A DNA stretch of 64,000 bases from NCBI RefSeq assembly GCF_024521635.1, contig NW_026250421.1:372001-436000 (forward strand), in the 5' to 3' direction. Of this stretch, positions 14,834 through 63,090 are shown in pieces. Within the stretch, counting starts at the first letter, position 1. Every line of letters begins with the position of its first letter. The translations under genes and the position numbers were made by a program. Origin of the DNA: Tricharina praecox. Taxonomy: Eukaryota. The notes under the pieces are model-generated. The model was not told the DNA's origin. It saw only the letters and a program-made list of their open reading frames with translations, and ran no database searches.

Positions 14834-14964
14834 AGAGGTGGGATGGCTGTCGAACTGGCCTACCTGTCGAACCCACTCAGACGCCAACCAACCATCCATA
14901 AACTCCTCTCCTAGCGACTGAGCGGGTTCGACAGGTAGGCCAGTTCGACAGCCATCCCACCTCT
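14834..14964. mobile_element. 131-bp foldback/MITE-like element with 47-bp inverted arms
   Basis: AGAGGTGGGATGGCTGTCGAACTGGCCTACCTGTCGAACCCACTCAG (14834-14880) pairs with 14918-14964 with one mismatch. No clear TSD. Confidence 0.7.
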
Positions 14965-16656
14965 TTGTTGAAAGTCACTGGCCCTCATCTACGAGTGTAG
15001 TCGTTGACTGTGCACACACCAAACGTCGTCAACACAGTCATTCGCCAGCCCCGTATGCAAGAGAATCTTGGCCGCCCAGATCTAGGTAAGCTTCATGCGA
15101 GCTCATCCAACGAGGCCAGGGCAACTATGGATGGCTGTGTCGATGTTCGGTGCGGCAATGCGGCGCCGTGTGCTTGATTTTTCCTCCGAACCAATCTCCA
15201 CGGTCAGCTCGCTGTGCAAGGATGAAGATATGAAAATGCAATGGAATGGAATCGTCTGTAGGCTCCATCTGGCGCTCAAATCGGCGATTGATTGCTGGCG
15301 ATGTGGACGTGGGAAGCTATAGGGTTGGTACACTACACAAATATGCAGTGGGGCCTGTGTCCTTCATCGATCGTCGATATCAAACACCGAAGCATCGGAA
15401 ACTCCCGTATGCATCATATCCATCTAGCAGTGTCCACTATCCTCCTATAGACGCTATGTGCGGTAGGAGCCGGCGCAATTAACGCCACTTTCCCCGCGTA
15501 CTAGCTCCGTTAGGCCGCGGAGATATGTATGGTGTGTACTGAGTATCACCGCTGTTGGTTGGAGGCACACTTCCGATGGCTACTGGGAAAGTAGACCAAC
15601 GAGACTGCGTGTACTCTATAGTAGAGCATGGTGGCTTGAGGGACGCCGGACGGCGGATCTGCTATAGGGGGCCGTTTGCTTGCTACCCCGTTCGATACCC
15701 ATTCCTGCCAACGATTACCCGCGCTGTCGGTAAGCGTGTTTTCGGCGCTTAACATCCGGGGTTCTTCGAAGCGGGCAACAACGATCGGCTTGAACGGCTT
15801 AAACGGCTCCATAGATACGTCAATAAAATGATTCCCCCACCCAACGGCTTGAACGGCTCGAGCGGCTCGGGGGTCGACTCAGTCGAGAGAGATTATGTAG
15901 GCCACTTCTCAATAATGCTCCTGAGACGGGGCTAACATGTGCACCTAGCGGAGGCAGAAGCTTCGTGTCATCCACATGATCGCCTGGGTAGTTGATGCGA
16001 ATGCGCAAATCTCTGCAGCTGCAAAAAAAATTACGGCGTCGCGGACGGAGTGAGGGGTAGAGTAGGAATGCCCCCAAGTGGGTAGGTATTTCGGAATAGA
16101 TGCGGCGCGATTCGTCAAGCGGATAGATTGAGTTGCGGCCGGATGCGTTTATCCCCTAGGGTACAAGCAATGCGTTAATCACGCATTTATTGCATCCGGA
16201 TTGTCGCAGAATGCGTTGCACATCGGTTTTTGACAGATACGCACTGTGATAATTGCGTTGTTGCTAGTAAATGTGTGAATTCTGCCCAAAGCTTTACTCG
16301 CAGGTGACACGTTGTCTGGTCTAAGGTAGATGGGGAGTAGCGTTGAGAAGGAAAGTTGTTGTATTGGTTTTTGTTACGTGCAAGTGTCATCCGGAAGAGT
16401 CAATCAACCCACACAGTTCGAGTCATTGCTGGGATGATTCTAGTAAATTAGTAGGAATGACTCCAGTCACCGAGTAGGAATGACTGAGTAAACCTGACTC
16501 GACTGCCAACCACAAAACCTTATTTATACCAACATCTCCAGACGTTCAAAGTTTAACACCTCCTCTCTCTCTCATCATCATCATCATCATCATCATCTAC
16601 AGGATAGACAATCATCAACCCCTCCCTCCTCTCTCTCTCGTGATCACCATTATCTA

Positions 16657-16888
16657 CTCACACGGCCGGAAATTTAGGTCCCCCCCCCACCCCCCCCCCA
16701 CCCCCCCTCCTCCACCTTCATCTCTACTCTACTGCAGGTTATTATCTGAGGTTGGATCTGTAGATGAGAATGAGCAGTTATCCTATGTGACGACGTTGAG
16801 CAAGCCTCGTTCATGAGTGACTATTTAAAGGGCAAGGAGGTGGTGGTGGTGGGGGAAGGGGGGGGCCCTAAATTTCCGGCCGTGTGAG
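16657..16888. mobile_element. 232-bp TA-flanked Tc1/mariner-type MITE
   Basis: TA|CTCACACGGCCGGAAATTTAGG ... CCTAAATTTCCGGCCGTGTGAG|TA is a perfect inverted repeat, extended inward by poly-C and poly-G tracts. Confidence 0.8.
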
Positions 16889-17094
16889 TAGTGTGTAGGT
16901 TATGATGTCGGCCGATGTCAAGTGGTATGGTAAGGCGACTGTGTGGCCAACTAAGGGATACCTCTACTGCCCGCCGCGCAACCATATACACGTCCACAGA
17001 ACCTTATTTGTGCCAAAATCTCCGGGCGTCCAAAGTTTGACCCCTCCTCTCTCTCTCAGCATCATGATCGTCTACAGAATAGACGATCAACCTC

Positions 17095-21642: not shown

Positions 21643-22530
21643 GGCTTTTATCCCCCATGTACCCCTCCAGCGCTGAAATATCGCCCATGTACCCCTCTAT
21701 CCTCGATGTACCCCATACAAAATTTCATAATTAAAGCACATAGGAGAATTCTCCTCCACAACAAAACAGATTTTAGTTCTACCTACTGTAATGTACATAG
21801 TGACCGGGGGGAGGGGGGGGGAAAGGAGGTAAAAGCGTATTTTTTTTACCCTCCCCTTCACTTTACAGTACCTAGACAGTACATATGTGGCTGCCTTTTT
21901 TTTGGAGAAAGGTATAGAATGCCCGCGGTGGAGCTAAAAAGATACCTGATTCCCTCGTCGGTACGAGATACCCTCACCAGCCAGCCACAGCAATGCTGCT
22001 GAAAGTGGGGTAGAAAAAGAATGCACCCCGAGATATTGTAGCATTATCATCGAAATAATTATATTGAGAATTTCCTTGCATAACTGTCTAATGGCCAATT
22101 TGTCTCCAGTCGCGCGTTGTAAACAGCATAGACTAGATGAGTGGAATTTGCGCTTGAGTCATAAAAGTTACTGACTCGCTATGCGCACATTTAGTGACTT
22201 GTCATTAAGATGGATTGACTCGCCACTAAAATAAACTGACTCCCCGCTTAATTGGATTGACTCGTCACTGAAATACCAACCAAAATCTTACTTCTCAACC
22301 GATGGAACACATAACCCACGAAAAAATCGTTATAAAATTTGGAAAAGCAGCACCATAGCGAGCTTCAGTGCTTCAATAAAATAGAAAATATGGTGGAGAA
22401 ATAAAATCTGTTTTGTTGTGGTGAAGAATCACCCTACTTTAATTATGAAATTTTGTGTGGGGTACATCGGGGATAGAGGGGTACATGGGCGATATTTCGG
22501 CGCCGGAGGGGTACATGGGGGATAAAAGCC
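21643..22530. mobile_element. 888-bp non-autonomous Mutator-like (MULE) element with about 140-bp TIRs
   Basis: GGCTTTTATCCCCCATGTACCCCTCC... at 21643 mirrors ...GGAGGGGTACATGGGGGATAAAAGCC at 22530 over about 140 bp, with internal ATGTACCCC repeats. The flanks GTTTATTCATC and ATTTGCTCATT differ only by transitions, consistent with a degenerate 11-bp TSD. The interior is AT-rich with no transposase. Confidence 0.75.
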
Positions 22531-24316: not shown

Positions 24317-26865
24317 TCAAATGAGGCCAGCCCAATGAGCCGCAAGCGACAAACCGGCCCCGGCCCACAAACACAAATCTACCGACAGGCTCACCTCCCC
24401 CACCTTGAGTCTCTTGGTGGACGATTGCTCGTCCACCTCAACTCCCCCTGCAGGCTCTTCCTCCCGTCCTCTCTTACCCCTAGTCGCCACCATACCCTCA
24501 CCACGACTCTCCCAGCGGGGATGCCGCTCTCGAAAGTTCTTCAAGAGGGCATCCCCACCCTCGCCAACGAAAAAAGGAGGCGGAGGACGAGAGAGCCTTG
24601 GGCGGGCATTCTGGGGACGAGGGAGAGAGGGAGGGCGTTGGACCGGCTGAGCCGTCCCCTTCACGGGAGTCGGTCCGCCAGCCTGGCTCAAGTACCGCTT
24701 GTGTACTTCAGCCAGCGAAAGGCATTTGGCTTCGGCAAATGCCCCCGCTCTGGCCTGGCGGACCTCCTCGGCACGTATCTGCCGCTCCAACGCCCTAGCC
24801 TGCGCCTTCGCACGGCCAAACTCCTGTGCATGGCGATCCTCGAGCAATTGCTGCTCTCGGGCGAACAAGAATTGCTGCTCTTGCTCGCGGATCACCTGCT
24901 GCTGGTGTTTCATGGCCGTGCGAAGCGCTTCGACCTCTTGTTGCGCGGCAACAAGAGTTTCCTGATCAGCGAGCTCCACCTGCCTCTGCTCGGCAGTGGC
25001 TCGCATCTCCAGCTGCTGCTGCTGCACAAATTTAAGCCTCTGCTGCTCCTGGCGCGCCAGCTCCGCCAACATCTGCTGGTAGTGTATTTGCTGCTGCTGC
25101 TGTGATTGCTGCTGCTGGAGTTGTTGCTGCTGCTGAAGTTGCCACTGGACTTGCTCCTGGAGTTGCTGCTGCTGGGATTGCTGCTGCAGCCGCTGCAGTT
25201 GCTGCTGGAATTGCTTCTGCGGCTAGAGTTGCTGCTGCTCGAGTTCCTGCTGGACGTACTGCTGCTGCTGCTGTAGTTGCTGCTGGACTTTCCCCTGCTG
25301 CTGTAGTTGCCGCTCGACTTCCTGCAGCACCTGGAATTGCTGCTGCGGCTCGAGTTGCTGCTGCTCGAGATGCTGTATGGCGTACTGCAGCAGCAGCTGT
25401 AGTTGCTGCTGGACTTTCCACTGCTGCTGTAGTTGTCGCTGGATTTCCTGCAGCACCTGGAATGGCTGCTGCTCGTGGAATGGCTGATGCTCCTGGAATT
25501 GCTGCTGGATGTGGTGCTGCTGCTGCTGTAGTTGCTGCTGGAGTTTCCGCTGGTCTTCCTGCATCTCCCAGATCTGCTGCTGCTGCTGCTGCTGCTGCTG
25601 GAATTGCTAGTGAGGATTGGTACGACACCAATCTCATGACTGGGGCGACTGGGTACGAACCTGCGTGGCCTGGGGCGCACGTTGAAGAGGAGGCGTTGGC
25701 TGAGCCTTGAGGGGTCCTTGATGCTGCTGATGCTGTGGTTGCTGCTGCTGTGATTGCGGCTGGAGTCTCTGCTGCTGCTGGATTCGCTGCTGCTCCTGGT
25801 GTTGTCGATGCTGTCCGACTTGCTCCTGGACTAGCTGCCGTTGCTGCTCGAGTTCCTAACGAGGGTTAGTAAGATGTCAATCTCCTGACTGAGGCGACTG
25901 GGTACGAACCTGCGTGGCCTGGGGCGCACGTTTACGTGGAGACTTTGGCGGAGCCTTGATGGGTCCTTGATGCTGCCGCCGCTGTGGTTGCTGCTGCTGT
26001 GATTGCTGCTGCTGGAGTCTCTGCTGCTGCTGGAGGCGCTGCTGCTCCTGGAGTTGTCGCTGCATCAGAAGCTCCAGCTCGACTTGCTGACGGACTTGCT
26101 CCTGCTGCTTCTGGAGCTACGGAAAAGAGTTAGCAAGAAGTCAATCTCATGATTGAGGTTGCTGGGTACGAACCTTCATCCAACGTGGCGATTGTTGCTG
26201 AGGAGACTTTGGCTGAGCCTTGATGGGTCCTTGATGCTGCTGAATCTGTGATTCCTGCTGGGGTCGCTGATGCTCCTGGAGTTTTCGCTGCTCCTGGAGT
26301 TTTCGCTGCTCCTGGAGTTGCTGGACTTGCTGCTGCTGCTGCTGCTGCTGCTGACGAGTATTAGCAAGAAGCCAATCTCATGACTGAGGTTACTGGGTAC
26401 GAACCTGCGTGGCCTGTGGCGCACGTTGACGAGGAGGCTTTGGCTGAGTCATGACTCTGGGTCCAGGTCCTTGAGGCGGCCACCGCTGTGTTTGCTGGAG
26501 CTGCTTGAGTTGCTGCTGCTCGCGTTGATACTGCTCGAGTTGCTGCTCCTCGATTTCATCCTGCAGCTTTAGTAGCATCTCCACTTTTTGCTGCATCTTT
26601 GATATCAGCTTGGGTGTCAGCAGATATTGCTGCTGCTCGAATTGCTGGACTTGCTCCCGCAGTTGCAGGAGATACTTGAGATGCTGCTGCTCTGGTGTTT
26701 GCGGCTGGACTTGCTCCTGCTGCTGCTCGAGTGGCTTATGAGTGTTAGTAAGAGAAGGCAATCTCATGACTGAGGCGGCTAGATACGAACCTGCGTTGCA
26801 AAAGGCCTACGTTGAGGAGGACGTTTTGGCTGAACCTTGAGGAGTTTATTGACGCAAGAAGTCAT
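24317..26865 (-). CDS. Glutamine-rich low-complexity/coiled-coil protein, 6 exons (26865-26791, 26734-26405, 26350-26174, 26116-25910, 25855-25661, 25606-24317), interrupted by one in-frame TAG at 25225-25223
   Basis: Five 54-57-nt phase-0 introns all begin GTTCGTA and end in AG. Exons 1-5 are 75, 330, 177, 207 and 195 nt and join into one Q-rich frame starting MTSCVNKLLKVQPKRPP. The same frame continues past the TAG to TGA at 24317. It may be a truncated allele or a pseudogene. Confidence 0.65.
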
Positions 26866-28183
26866 GGTTAAGAGCGGTCGAAGTGTGTTGTACTAAGACG
26901 TGAAGGGTCGAAGTTGTGGGATGTCTGAACCGGAGAAATTAGAGTCGGTTGTGTGGTGGAGAGTGAAGAGGAGAAGAAGAAGGAGGAGGAGGAGGAGGGG
27001 GAGAGGTAGAAGAAGATGAGTGCACATCTTGGCTAGTTGTGCGGCGAAGCTCAACACGCTAGCGTTTTTATCATTATTCACTCCAACGGCCGCCCAATTA
27101 AGACGGAGGCCATGCATAGACTGTCACTCGAGAGTCGGTGCGTTCGTGTAACTTCAAGCTATTTTCTTCGACACTCAACGACAGGAAAATAAGCTATGTA
27201 GCCGATTGCTTTGTTAAAGCCTCGGGCTGATGTGATAATAGTAATACATATGAGAGCAAAATGTAATTATTTAGGACATAACCGGCTCGTTCATTTGGTT
27301 TCACGATTCGGCGATTGAGGAAATGCCCACGAACCAGCATGCCCTTATCCCAGGAAATTGCGGCACATATTTCATAATCTTAGGCTGCCAGGTGATCCTT
27401 ATTCAGGTGTTAGTTCGATGTTTTCCGCAACCTGAATGTTTTGTCGTTCAAAGAACCAGATGGTTGCGGTTGGCCATGGTACCGTGAATTGTGAAGTGTC
27501 GAACAAAATATATTCATAATACTCTGTTGTGTCAAGCTTATACTGTGACAGTCGGCTTCGCTACGCGGCTGTCTTTTAGCCCACAGCACAAGTACCGCTA
27601 TATCACTTTGCCTCGAGTTCTAGATTCAACTCCCAAGGATCGACCACCAGAGCGAATCGAGAGCTGGAACAGTCAATTTTGGCATCATTTCAGAAACGTC
27701 GCTTCTTGCTGCTGAGCGGGTTATTGGTGGTTGAAATTCAGTTGTTTGGTTGCAGAATTGGGCGGATATAAGTAAATACGTTAAAGATTAGGTGCCAGCA
27801 GCAATCGCTGGCAACTTTATGTGCACGGGCTAAACATCGGAGGGAAGTATGGTAAAGTATACAGAATTATCTTTCAATGTTCTTGAATGACAGCCAAAAG
27901 TGATACCGAGCCGTGCATACCGTGCGACTGCCGGCCGCTGCTCCGATATGCTCGAATGAAAATTGCGCCACACTGTATGTGTGACTACGCTAGTGTCATC
28001 ACCAGCCACAGCCACTGCTGGCGTCACTGCCCCACCTAACCAACCGACAAGAACAAGCTCAGCTCAGCACCATTCCCACCACACCCCCTCGCAAGCCGAC
28101 TCGTCACAGCCGCCTCACCTCATCGAATTACCCCCTAATTCTTTTTTCGTGAACTACATACTTCCTAGTAGTTGCCAATCGTC

Positions 28184-30156
28184 ATGTGGGAAGACAACAA
28201 CCCTCTCTCATATGATGAGTCGCCTACGGAGTCGCACTTCCCGGCGTACGATGAAGATCCATCTCCCCCGGCTTCCCGCGACTCCAACGACGACCATGGA
28301 CCGCACAACTTCATTACTCGCGCCAACCGCACTCCTTCCGAGCATTCTCGGAAGCCTGCCGACGACTCTGACGACGAGGAGGATGAGGAGTACCGACGGA
28401 TGAGGAAGGAGAAGGGTTACAGCTCTCGCGTTGAGCAGATGCTACTCGAGGACAAGAACGTGCCGATTGTCATCGCCGACGCGGGGAAAAATCACGAGGG
28501 CAGTGGAGGGTTCATCGTCTATACTATCTGCACAGGGGTGAGGATCTGCAATGCTTTCGCGATAGCTTCCCGAAGCTCTGAACGAGCTTGACTATAGACG
28601 CTGATGGGACATAGGACCTTGAAGTTCGCCGGCGATACTCAGAGTTCGAGTCTCTGCGAAAAAACCTGTCGCTTCTACATCCTTGCCTTATTGTCCCGCC
28701 AATTCCGGAGAAGCATCAGGTTTCGGATTACGTCGCGGCGCCTACCAGCGCGAAGGAGAACGTCAACATCATCGATCATCGCAAACGGATGCTGGGGGTT
28801 TTCCTGCAGCGATGCGCTCGGATGAAAGAGATTCGATATGATAGTGTATTTCAACGCTTCTTGGACCCTAATGCGAGCTGGGTATGTACTGCTTTTCCCG
28901 CTTGAATGGTACGAAGAGCGCTAAGAGTATTGCAGAGTGAAGTGATTATGTCGCCGCCGATTTCAACACTCCCCAAGCACCACCTCCGTGCTCCACCTCT
29001 TAACCCCTCGGAACCATCGCATGCGCATCAGTTTCTCCCCATACCATCCGCCTCAGCCAAACTCAAGCCCAACAATAGTCCTCCGTCGACTTCTCACGGC
29101 AACCCTCCTGGAAACTTTGGCCGCTTCCCACCGCTGAATCATAATCTCGCGGAATCCGAGCTCGACCCGTACTTTAACAACTACGAGGCCTCTACCAGGG
29201 CTTATGAAGCCCTGCTTACTGGATCAATCGAGCGTGTGAACCGTCGCATCCTGAAGCGACTGCAAGAATTGTCCTTGGATTACAATGAGCTTGGCGCGAG
29301 ATATAACGCGTGGTCACTCTCGGAATCTGGAGACCTAGTAACTGCCATCGAGAAGGTTGGACAGGCGGTGGATAGCACGTACATTGCGACCGAACAGCTC
29401 TCGACTGTTCTCGGAAGTAGCTTCGCCGAGCCTCTGCGCGAGAGTGCACAGTTTGCCGGTGTTGTCCAGAAGGTGCTGAGGTACCGAGTTCTGAAGCGTA
29501 TACAGGAAGATATGACGCGAGACACGCTTTCGCAGAAACGGTCACTGCTTGAGAGTCTGGAGAAATCTGAGAAAGAGGCCAAGAGAATCGAGCAATATCT
29601 TCACGGTGGTAGCTCTCACGGCTCTCCTAGGACATCTAGTGATCGGGATAGCAGCGGTGGGAGAGATCCCGAAATCGAGTCGCTCGATTCCGCTGATGAA
29701 TCTTCCGAATTCCCGCCGACGCACGAGAATACCCGGCCACGCAGAAAGTCCACTGCTGGACGCTCTCCGACTTCAGCAGCTGGTCATAAGAAGAGCAACT
29801 CGTACTCGGCGGCGCCCAGCACCTCCTCTAATATCTTTGCTAAAGGTTTCGGGAAGCTGAACTATGCCATTCACGGGATTGTCGATGTCGATCCGGAACG
29901 GACTCGGCGAGACAATATCGGCAAAACACGCGAGTTAATAGTGCAGCTGGAAGGGGCAGAGAAAGCGGTGGAGAAGGATGTGGAGGAGGCCGGTAGAGCG
30001 GTATTAAAGGACCTCAGGCGGTTTCAATCGGAAAAGGTCAAGGATATGAAGCATGTCATGAGGGAATACGCAAAGGTGCAGATCGAGTGGGCGAAGCGCT
30101 GTCAGGAATCGTGGGAGGATGCAGAAGCCGAAGTGGTGAAGATCCAGCCCAGATAG
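28184..30156 (+). CDS. SNX41: Sorting nexin-41 / Atg20-like PX-BAR protein, about 613 aa, 3 exons (28184-28537, 28615-28881, 28936-30156)
   Basis: Splicing gives a PX domain (FIVYTICTG-DLEVRRRYSEFESLRKNLSLLHPCLIVPPIPEKH...IIDHRKRMLGVFL...RFLDPNASW-SEV), followed by a BAR-type helical region and the IHGIVDVDPERTRRDNIGKTRE motif typical of Snx41/Atg20. Splice sites are canonical GT-AG. Confidence 0.92.
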
Positions 30157-50263: not shown

Positions 50264-50437
50264 GAGAGGAGACCACACACAGAAGAAAGAGGAGGTGGAG
50301 GTTGATGGACTATTCTGTAAAGGATGATCAAGAAAGAAGAAGAAGAAGACGACCAAGCCATGCCCGCCAACGTTGAAGCCCACTACTAACCGCATTCGCT
50401 TCCTCCCGCCGGCAGCTCGTTCATCGCTCCGCCACAC
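50264..50437 (+). repeat. Copy of dispersed splice-acceptor-bearing repeat family
   Basis: Inverted match to 52191-52439. CTAAC at 50386 and CAG at 50413-50415. Confidence 0.7.
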
Positions 50438-52190: not shown

Positions 52191-52439
52191 GTGTGGCGGA
52201 ACGAGAGGAGGAGCTCTCGGTGAGAGAGGAAGTGAAGGGGGACTCCTGTCGGCGGGAGGAACCGAATGTGGTTAGTAGTGGGCATGAACGTTGGCAGGAA
52301 TCACCGTTGGCGGCCATGGCGGGATCGACCGAGTGGGCCCGGCGGGGTCGTCTACTTCTTCTTCTTCTTTCTTGATCATCCTTTCCAGAATAGACAATCA
52401 ACCTCTATCTCCTCTTTCTTCTGTGTGTGCTCTCCTCTC
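52191..52439 (-). repeat. Copy of dispersed splice-acceptor-bearing repeat family (inverted)
   Basis: The reverse complement contains CACACACAGAAGAAAGAGGAG, GATGATCAAGAAAGAAGAAG and CACTACTAACCACATTCGGTTCCTCCCGCCGACAG. Confidence 0.7.
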
Positions 52440-62949: not shown

Positions 62950-63090
62950 CCCCTCGGTCAAAGAAGAAGAAGAAGAAAAGAAAAAGAAGAAGAAGGAACC
63001 CCGCCATGCCCACCAATGTTGATGTGCACCACTAACCACATTCGTTTTCTCCCGCCGAGTAGCCGATAGCTCCTTTATCGCTCGCCACAA
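62950..63090 (+). repeat. Copy of dispersed splice-acceptor-bearing repeat family
   Basis: A GAA-rich tract, then GCCATGCCCACCAATGTTGA..CACCACTAACCACATTCGTTTTCTCCCGCCG..AGCTCC...CGCCACA, matching 50340-50437. Confidence 0.65.

Follow-up and report, generated by a model that had tools for sequence, protein, structure and literature searches.

The 64,000-nt stretch of DNA analysed here (the window) carries on its minus strand a glutamine-rich gene with five homologous introns. The explanation that accounts best for the observations as a whole, and that we consider very likely, is tandem duplication of an intron-containing segment within a Gln-rich family of three paralogues, of which the window copy is probably truncated. 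The gene is one of three dispersed members of this family, which is restricted to the lineage of a Pezizales fungus. In a DNA search the other two were located at C17:~666.4-668.3 kb (C17), where the shared intron occurs twice (54 and 53 nt), and at C16:~476.8-477.7 kb (C16b), where it occurs once (57 nt). Such a route of intron gain is already described in fungi, and the window gene is best filed with repeat expansions of the type seen in the Cryptococcus neoformans gene CNN00420 (Sharpton et al. 2008, PMC2395259).

The five introns that a first-pass annotation had proposed from the sequence were all recovered on the minus strand, with the same coordinates, GT..AG boundaries and phase 0 (Table 1). 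Each starts with GTTCGTA and ends in AG, and each is preceded by a Pro/basic linker and followed by Gln-rich sequence. The lengths of exons 1 to 5 are all multiples of 3, so that the four internal exons are frame-preserving, as had also been noted. Introns 1 to 4 carry a CTAAC or CTAAT branch site; the absence of such a site from intron 5 was rightly pointed out in the annotation, the sequence at that position being TACCAAT. Spliced from the ATG at 26865, the frame reaches a TAG after 455 codons, 40% of them Gln.

Table 1. Features of the Gln-rich gene and its upstream block (window coordinates)
Feature	Positions	Strand	Remarks
Upstream block	26866..27131	-	Probable promoter and 5' leader with CT-rich tract; common to both paralogues
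Exon 1	26791..26865	-	75 nt, 25 codons from ATG; homologous start in both paralogues
Exon 1, 3' ~60 nt	within 26791..26865	-	Source of the repeated Pro/basic linker
Intron 1	26735..26790	-	56 nt, phase 0, CTAAC branch; frame shifts if unspliced
Exon 2	26405..26734	-	330 nt, poly-Q and diverged linker
Intron 2	26351..26404	-	54 nt, phase 0, CTAAT branch; tandem in-frame CAG acceptors next
Exon 3	26174..26350	-	177 nt, poly-Q and linker
Intron 3	26117..26173	-	57 nt, phase 0, CTAAC branch
Exon 4	25910..26116	-	207 nt, poly-Q and linker
Intron 4	25856..25909	-	54 nt, phase 0, CTAAC branch
Exon 5	25661..25855	-	195 nt, poly-Q and linker
Intron 5	25607..25660	-	54 nt, phase 0, CTRAY branch motif absent
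Exon 6, first part	25226..25606	-	127 codons, poly-Q
Premature in-frame TAG	25223..25225	-	
Exon 6, remainder	24317..25222	-	301 open codons, ends at shared TGA; conserved in both paralogues; poly-Q, predicted helix, Pro-rich stretch, basic clusters, hydrophobic end

Pairwise identity among the five introns averages 0.78 (10 pairs, range 0.68-0.83). The control, 20 intron-like strings picked by regular expression from the window and other loci and unverified as introns, gave a mean of 0.51 and a maximum of 0.66 (189 of 190 pairs, one pair at >=0.9 having been dropped), and the window introns matched these strings at <=0.58. Since an identity of 68-83% contrasts with 51% for unrelated intron-like strings, the five introns are truly homologous. 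The term near-identical, used for them in the annotation, is nevertheless too strong, as about 22% of their non-signal sites differ. Differences of ~20% between modules also make an assembly artefact unlikely. A 17-nt block in the middle of the intron (e.g., window 26759-26775) is less variable than other non-signal sites by permutation (p = 0.009 over 17 columns, 0.026 over 15 and 0.06 over 13, the span having been chosen after the data were seen). This block is almost unique to the three-gene family within the genome, and in most copies it includes the TGA that is in frame. The possibility of a conserved hairpin in the introns was considered and found to be unsupported, with fold z-scores from -0.04 to -2.06 and structures that differ between copies.

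The homology extends into the flanking exons. The 63 nt upstream of each intron are 57-89% identical among the five copies, and alignment of the internal exons covers most of their length, exons 4 and 5 being the top-scoring pair (83% identity). Homology to the final ~60 nt of exon 1 is seen in every linker that precedes an internal intron and fades ~4-7 codons past the ATG; the internal exons are hence chimeras of a poly-Q head and an exon 1 tail. The annotation had described the repeated module as poly-Q, linker and intron. A linker does stand before and Gln-rich sequence after each intron, but the first linker, which is the N-terminal exon, has no poly-Q in front of it, and the unit is better read as exon 1 tail, intron and poly-Q head, i.e., linker-intron-poly-Q.

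The window gene and both paralogues have in common the 25-codon exon 1, ~270 nt of upstream sequence (85-93% pairwise identity over the first ~110 columns), the C-terminus and the stop. The family thus comprises eight homologous introns (five, two and one), with a homologous exon-1-type linker upstream of each. C16b is without much of the middle of the protein. Protein and upstream-DNA searches of the genome (38.4 Mb, 104 contigs) returned no fourth member, and no outgroup locus emerged from metagenomes, in which near relatives may be lacking, either with a peptide pattern (0 of 596 confirmed) or with an intron pattern (0). In C17, intron 1 (L013:5147-5200, minus strand) lacks CTRAY and has a GTTCAT donor, and its spliced frame is nonetheless intact. 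The 5' leader of the same paralogue (L013:5300-5500, minus strand) carries local tandem duplications, which indicates that loci of this family are prone to duplication beyond the coding region.

Several lines of evidence bear on splicing and coding. The eight family introns measure 53, 54, 56 or 57 nt, two of them not multiples of 3, and all eight restore the poly-Q frame when removed from GT to AG and contain two or three in-frame stops each. GT and AG are kept in all eight, and CTRAY in six. Across the three spliced genes we counted 458 Gln codons and a single TAR stop, together with 52 CGR, 124 GAR and 67 AAR codons (codon counts in repeats being non-independent events); TAR is rare in the spliced frames even though the introns change most often by C>T (12 of 56 changes). 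At the C-terminus dN/dS is 0.37 (bootstrap 0.23-0.57) between the window gene and C16b and 0.49 (0.33-0.81) between C16b and C17, and 0.64 between the window gene and C17, where the interval reaches 1.06 and the value is indistinguishable from 1. Private changes in C17 number 7 synonymous and 13 non-synonymous. The repeated linker is free of amino-acid constraint (dN/dS 1.3 against the consensus). Three soil metatranscriptome runs gave short matches to the CAG tracts, mostly at <90%, and zero junctions at the five introns, a result that is uninformative either way.

From these sequence features, the family introns are probably removed singly, as ordinary short fungal introns, and a retained intron would stop translation. 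Retention is to be expected, most likely at window intron 5. The end of intron 2 (window 26345-26353) presents tandem CAG CAG CAG acceptors, all in frame; their alternative use would alter the Gln count by one or two, and such shifts may be expected.

The TAG that interrupts the spliced window frame is followed by 301 more open codons, which match the two paralogue loci at 73% and 71%. The first part of exon 6 overlaps an intron-free 126-nt tandem duplication (25331-25456 and 25205-25330, 88% identity), and the sister repeat has a Glu codon at the position of the TAG. Comparison with the sister repeat suggests that the stop arose by a G-to-T change, for which reason repeat-induced point mutation (RIP) was set aside as its source. 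A search for an in-frame intron that contains a CTRAY motif and would span the TAG was negative. Private changes in the window C-terminus amount to 11 synonymous and 9 non-synonymous, with no further stops downstream, so that the TAG looks recent. It removes the conserved C-terminus, and neither the stop nor the two paralogues had figured in the first-pass annotation. Barring a sequence error or a rare allele at the TAG, the window copy is probably truncated or decaying.

The annotation had also supposed that the duplication was recent, which the divergence of the copies does not support. Mean intron identity is 0.78 within the window gene and 0.76 to the paralogues (Mann-Whitney p = 0.27, pairs non-independent), Jukes-Cantor (JC) distances at non-signal intron sites are 0.27 and 0.28, respectively, and the three paralogues are equidistant (dS 0.36-0.37). 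Since divergence within the gene matches that between paralogues, the intron copies do not postdate the family; the modules are of roughly its age, and homogenisation is not detectable. The junction tree separates the five internal-type junctions, of which C17 junction 2 is one, from the three first-exon junctions with an ultrafast bootstrap of 99, which places the first duplication before the split from the C17 paralogue. Other branches are poorly supported (31-71). Unit number differs among the paralogues, and because these are equidistant, the series of one, two and five introns cannot be read as growth: the one- and two-intron genes could instead have arisen by contraction from a longer array.

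A simple sequence of events would account for this structure. The ancestor would have had a single intron after a first exon of 25 codons, and an in-frame internal duplication reaching from ~4-7 codons into exon 1 to the poly-Q of exon 2 would have copied the intron together with working splice signals. A short likeness of exon 1 to Gln/His codons in that place may have served as the seed, although this is suggestive only. Slippage or unequal crossing-over could later have changed the unit number, around the time of gene duplication. Phase 0 needs no separate cause, since an in-frame duplication over one intron automatically yields a symmetric exon.

Other explanations of the five introns differ widely in how well they agree with these data. 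Introner families are recognised by related short introns within one genome (PMC3488318, on fungal intron transposition), and the genome has other mobile elements, such as a multi-copy inverted-repeat element ~1.8 kb past the end of the gene, so that a mobile intron might have inserted five times into one gene. However, the genome-wide check that the annotation had proposed for dispersed copies led, by pattern and BLAST-type searches, to family genes only. A long intron pattern gave 7 matches, all in the family, and 0 in the control (the C16b copy was missed for a 3-nt insertion). The 17-nt core with <=2 mismatches gave 13 matches against 7 in the control, of which 8 lie in the family and 5 are without donor and branch context. 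A 12-nt donor pattern gave 19 against 14, with 6 in the family and 13 followed by unrelated downstream sequence. Exon flanks are homologous at all eight sites, and a stable fold shared by the copies is absent. As these searches found no intron copy in any unrelated gene, the array is not an introner, and repeated intron transposition seems to us exceedingly improbable; tandem co-duplication of the intron with its exon flanks, which the annotation had preferred, is what flank homology and the lack of dispersed copies favour. There is also very little likelihood that the introns are unspliced and the region a non-coding or long-dead tandem repeat. This would suit the premature stop, the degenerate branch site of intron 5 and the lack of a known family, but it would leave unexplained a frame that is restored across different intron length classes, stops that (but for one) are limited to introns while TAR is avoided, a C-terminal dN/dS below 1, the conservation of the block upstream, and the spliced frames of C17 and C16b, which run uninterrupted for 571 and 283 codons.

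Closer to tandem duplication, and in fact a variant of it, is an ancestral array of at least three modules from which the paralogues lost units by recombination, the introns themselves having still been made by duplication. We regard this as possible, at appreciably less than an even chance. The star-like divergence of the eight junctions and the equidistance of the paralogues agree with it, and so does the middle of the protein that C16b largely lacks. The same can be said of particular resemblances: window intron 1 has its nearest counterpart in C16b intron 1 (87%), the 3' end of window intron 4 and the codons after it recur at C17 intron 1 (4 shared non-consensus sites, a weak signal), and C17 junction 2 is the partner of window junction 5 (linker 89%). 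However, the shared sites are few and possibly ancestral states, and tree support is low. Even with later losses, the origin of the linker in the unique first exon requires that the first duplication was a gain. It is unlikely, to a marked degree, that the array is a functional generator of isoforms, in which poly-Q length would be tuned by combinatorial skipping of the symmetric exons. Four internal exons in phase 0-0, all multiples of 3, would permit it; exon deletion variants are described for the schistosome SmPoMuc genes, which also have exon-intron repeats (PMC2576457); and the 17-nt mid-intron block stands out among non-signal sites by its lower variation (p from 0.009 to 0.06, post hoc). 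In-frame duplication, however, makes exons symmetric by itself, a consistent fold is missing from the mid-intron block, and every isoform with exon 6 meets the premature TAG. Moreover, skipped exons make up 3% and intron retention 61% of alternative-splicing events in 23 fungi, for which the authors propose intron definition (PMC3925392). A fuller version, in which the array would act as a dial of poly-Q length with up to 16 in-frame forms, the 17-nt block would be a splicing-regulator site multiplied along with the module and the TAG an error or minor allele, is conceivable from the sequence and has, in our estimate, slight probability.

Tandem duplication of an intron with its flanks has several known counterparts, which we compare here. 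CNN00420 of C. neoformans has six related introns in a repeat of ~107 nt made of exon ends and intron, with EST support and polymorphism among strains, for which slippage, unequal crossing-over or conversion has been proposed (PMC2395259). Like the window gene, it is fungal and combines several homologous short introns with short exonic repeats, the repeat consists of exon ends and a whole intron, and unit number differs between homologues. However, its introns are identical or one base apart, whereas those of the window gene are ~78% identical and known from genome sequence alone; its unit number varies among strains and that of our family among paralogues (one, two and five); and only the window repeat has poly-Q and a linker traced to the first exon.

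The Coccidioides SOWgp is likewise an ascomycete repeat protein in which the repeats are exons with introns, their number being altered by unequal crossing-over, but its repeats are kept nearly identical by concerted evolution (PMC2576457, PMC9779670), whereas within-gene homogenisation is undetectable in the window gene. The Argiope spidroin MaSp2 resembles the latter as a low-complexity protein with a higher-order repeat bounded by related introns; these average 97.6% identity within the gene and group by gene (PMC9779670), in contrast to 78% and no grouping by gene in the window family. The identity typical of concerted evolution within a gene, >93% in SOWgp, MaSp2 and SmPoMuc, is thus far above our 0.78, which is not significantly different from the 0.76 between genes. 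The 90-bp-exon LRR arrays of Tetrahymena are also clonal exon/intron units in one phase, vary in unit number among in-paralogues as our family does, and have been attributed, as a proposal, to unequal crossing-over (PMC6564038). They differ in comprising thousands of genes, with a fixed exon length and a folded domain, compared with three genes, exons of 177-330 nt and a low-complexity product here. Fungal introner-like elements share with the window introns that they are a family of related short introns in one genome, but they transpose among unrelated genes (PMC3488318), where no window intron was found, and the flanks of the latter were co-duplicated.

Little can be matched to the protein. 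A word-indexed search with the C-terminal region found zero homologues at E<=0.001 among 1416 candidates of 165-527 aa, and the full HMMER library gave one match, a metagenome fragment of 92 aa with 56% identity. This fragment retains the Pro-rich motif, the two basic clusters and the last residues, and as it keeps these C-terminal motifs the Gln-rich family extends beyond this genome. In the Atlas, scores of 0.77 for the metagenome homologue are at chance level. No Pfam family was assigned to any of the three family proteins tested, no PDB sequence match was obtained for the family protein, and literature searches, in which the family could not be named, gave nothing on it. An AlphaFold model from a four-sequence alignment shows a long helix and then mostly coil, at low confidence (pLDDT 56.7, pTM 0.22). 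A C-terminal membrane anchor was rejected, the hydropathy peak (0.8-1.6 over 19 aa) being too variable. The predicted product is a poly-Q protein, mostly of low complexity, in which a small C-terminal part is constrained; the basic clusters of this part, in our own reading, resemble a nuclear localisation signal. As a guess, it may be a nuclear Q-rich low-complexity scaffold or co-regulator in which Gln content is free to vary.

Upstream of the gene, at ~1.3 kb and in divergent orientation, lies an SNX41/Atg20-like sorting nexin gene (window 28172-30156, plus strand; also delimited as 28906-30156). Among named organisms it matches best in Sphaerosporella brunnea (81%), Trichophaea hybrida (78%) and Geopyxis carbonaria (72%), which places the source of the window in the Pezizales; the family would be Pyronemataceae. 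An element of ~890 nt at window 21643-22530 has 94-nt inverted ends that are 96% complementary, with 94 matches across the genome, several of them as paired ends, and is MITE-like, i.e., of the non-autonomous transposon type. Inverted repeat arms ~2 kb apart (50264-50415 and 52246-52439; 90 and 56 nt, 88-91%), with a related copy at 63006-63058, probably mark another mobile element. Short inverted-repeat elements are found at 14834-14964 (51-nt arms, 96%, 29-nt spacer) and 16654-16891 (53-nt arms, 85%).

The interest of this family is that of a teaching case and not of a new mechanism: one gene is present in a single genome in versions with one, two and five introns. The first breakpoint can be placed within exon 1, so that symmetric phase-0 exons appear as a by-product of in-frame internal duplication, and the intron copies diverge without homogenisation, unlike those of SOWgp or the spidroins. 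The array would matter more only if exon skipping or a function of the mid-intron block held true; a poly-Q dial, if real, would mean combinatorial splicing resembling exon definition in an organism of intron definition, and in a young orphan family.
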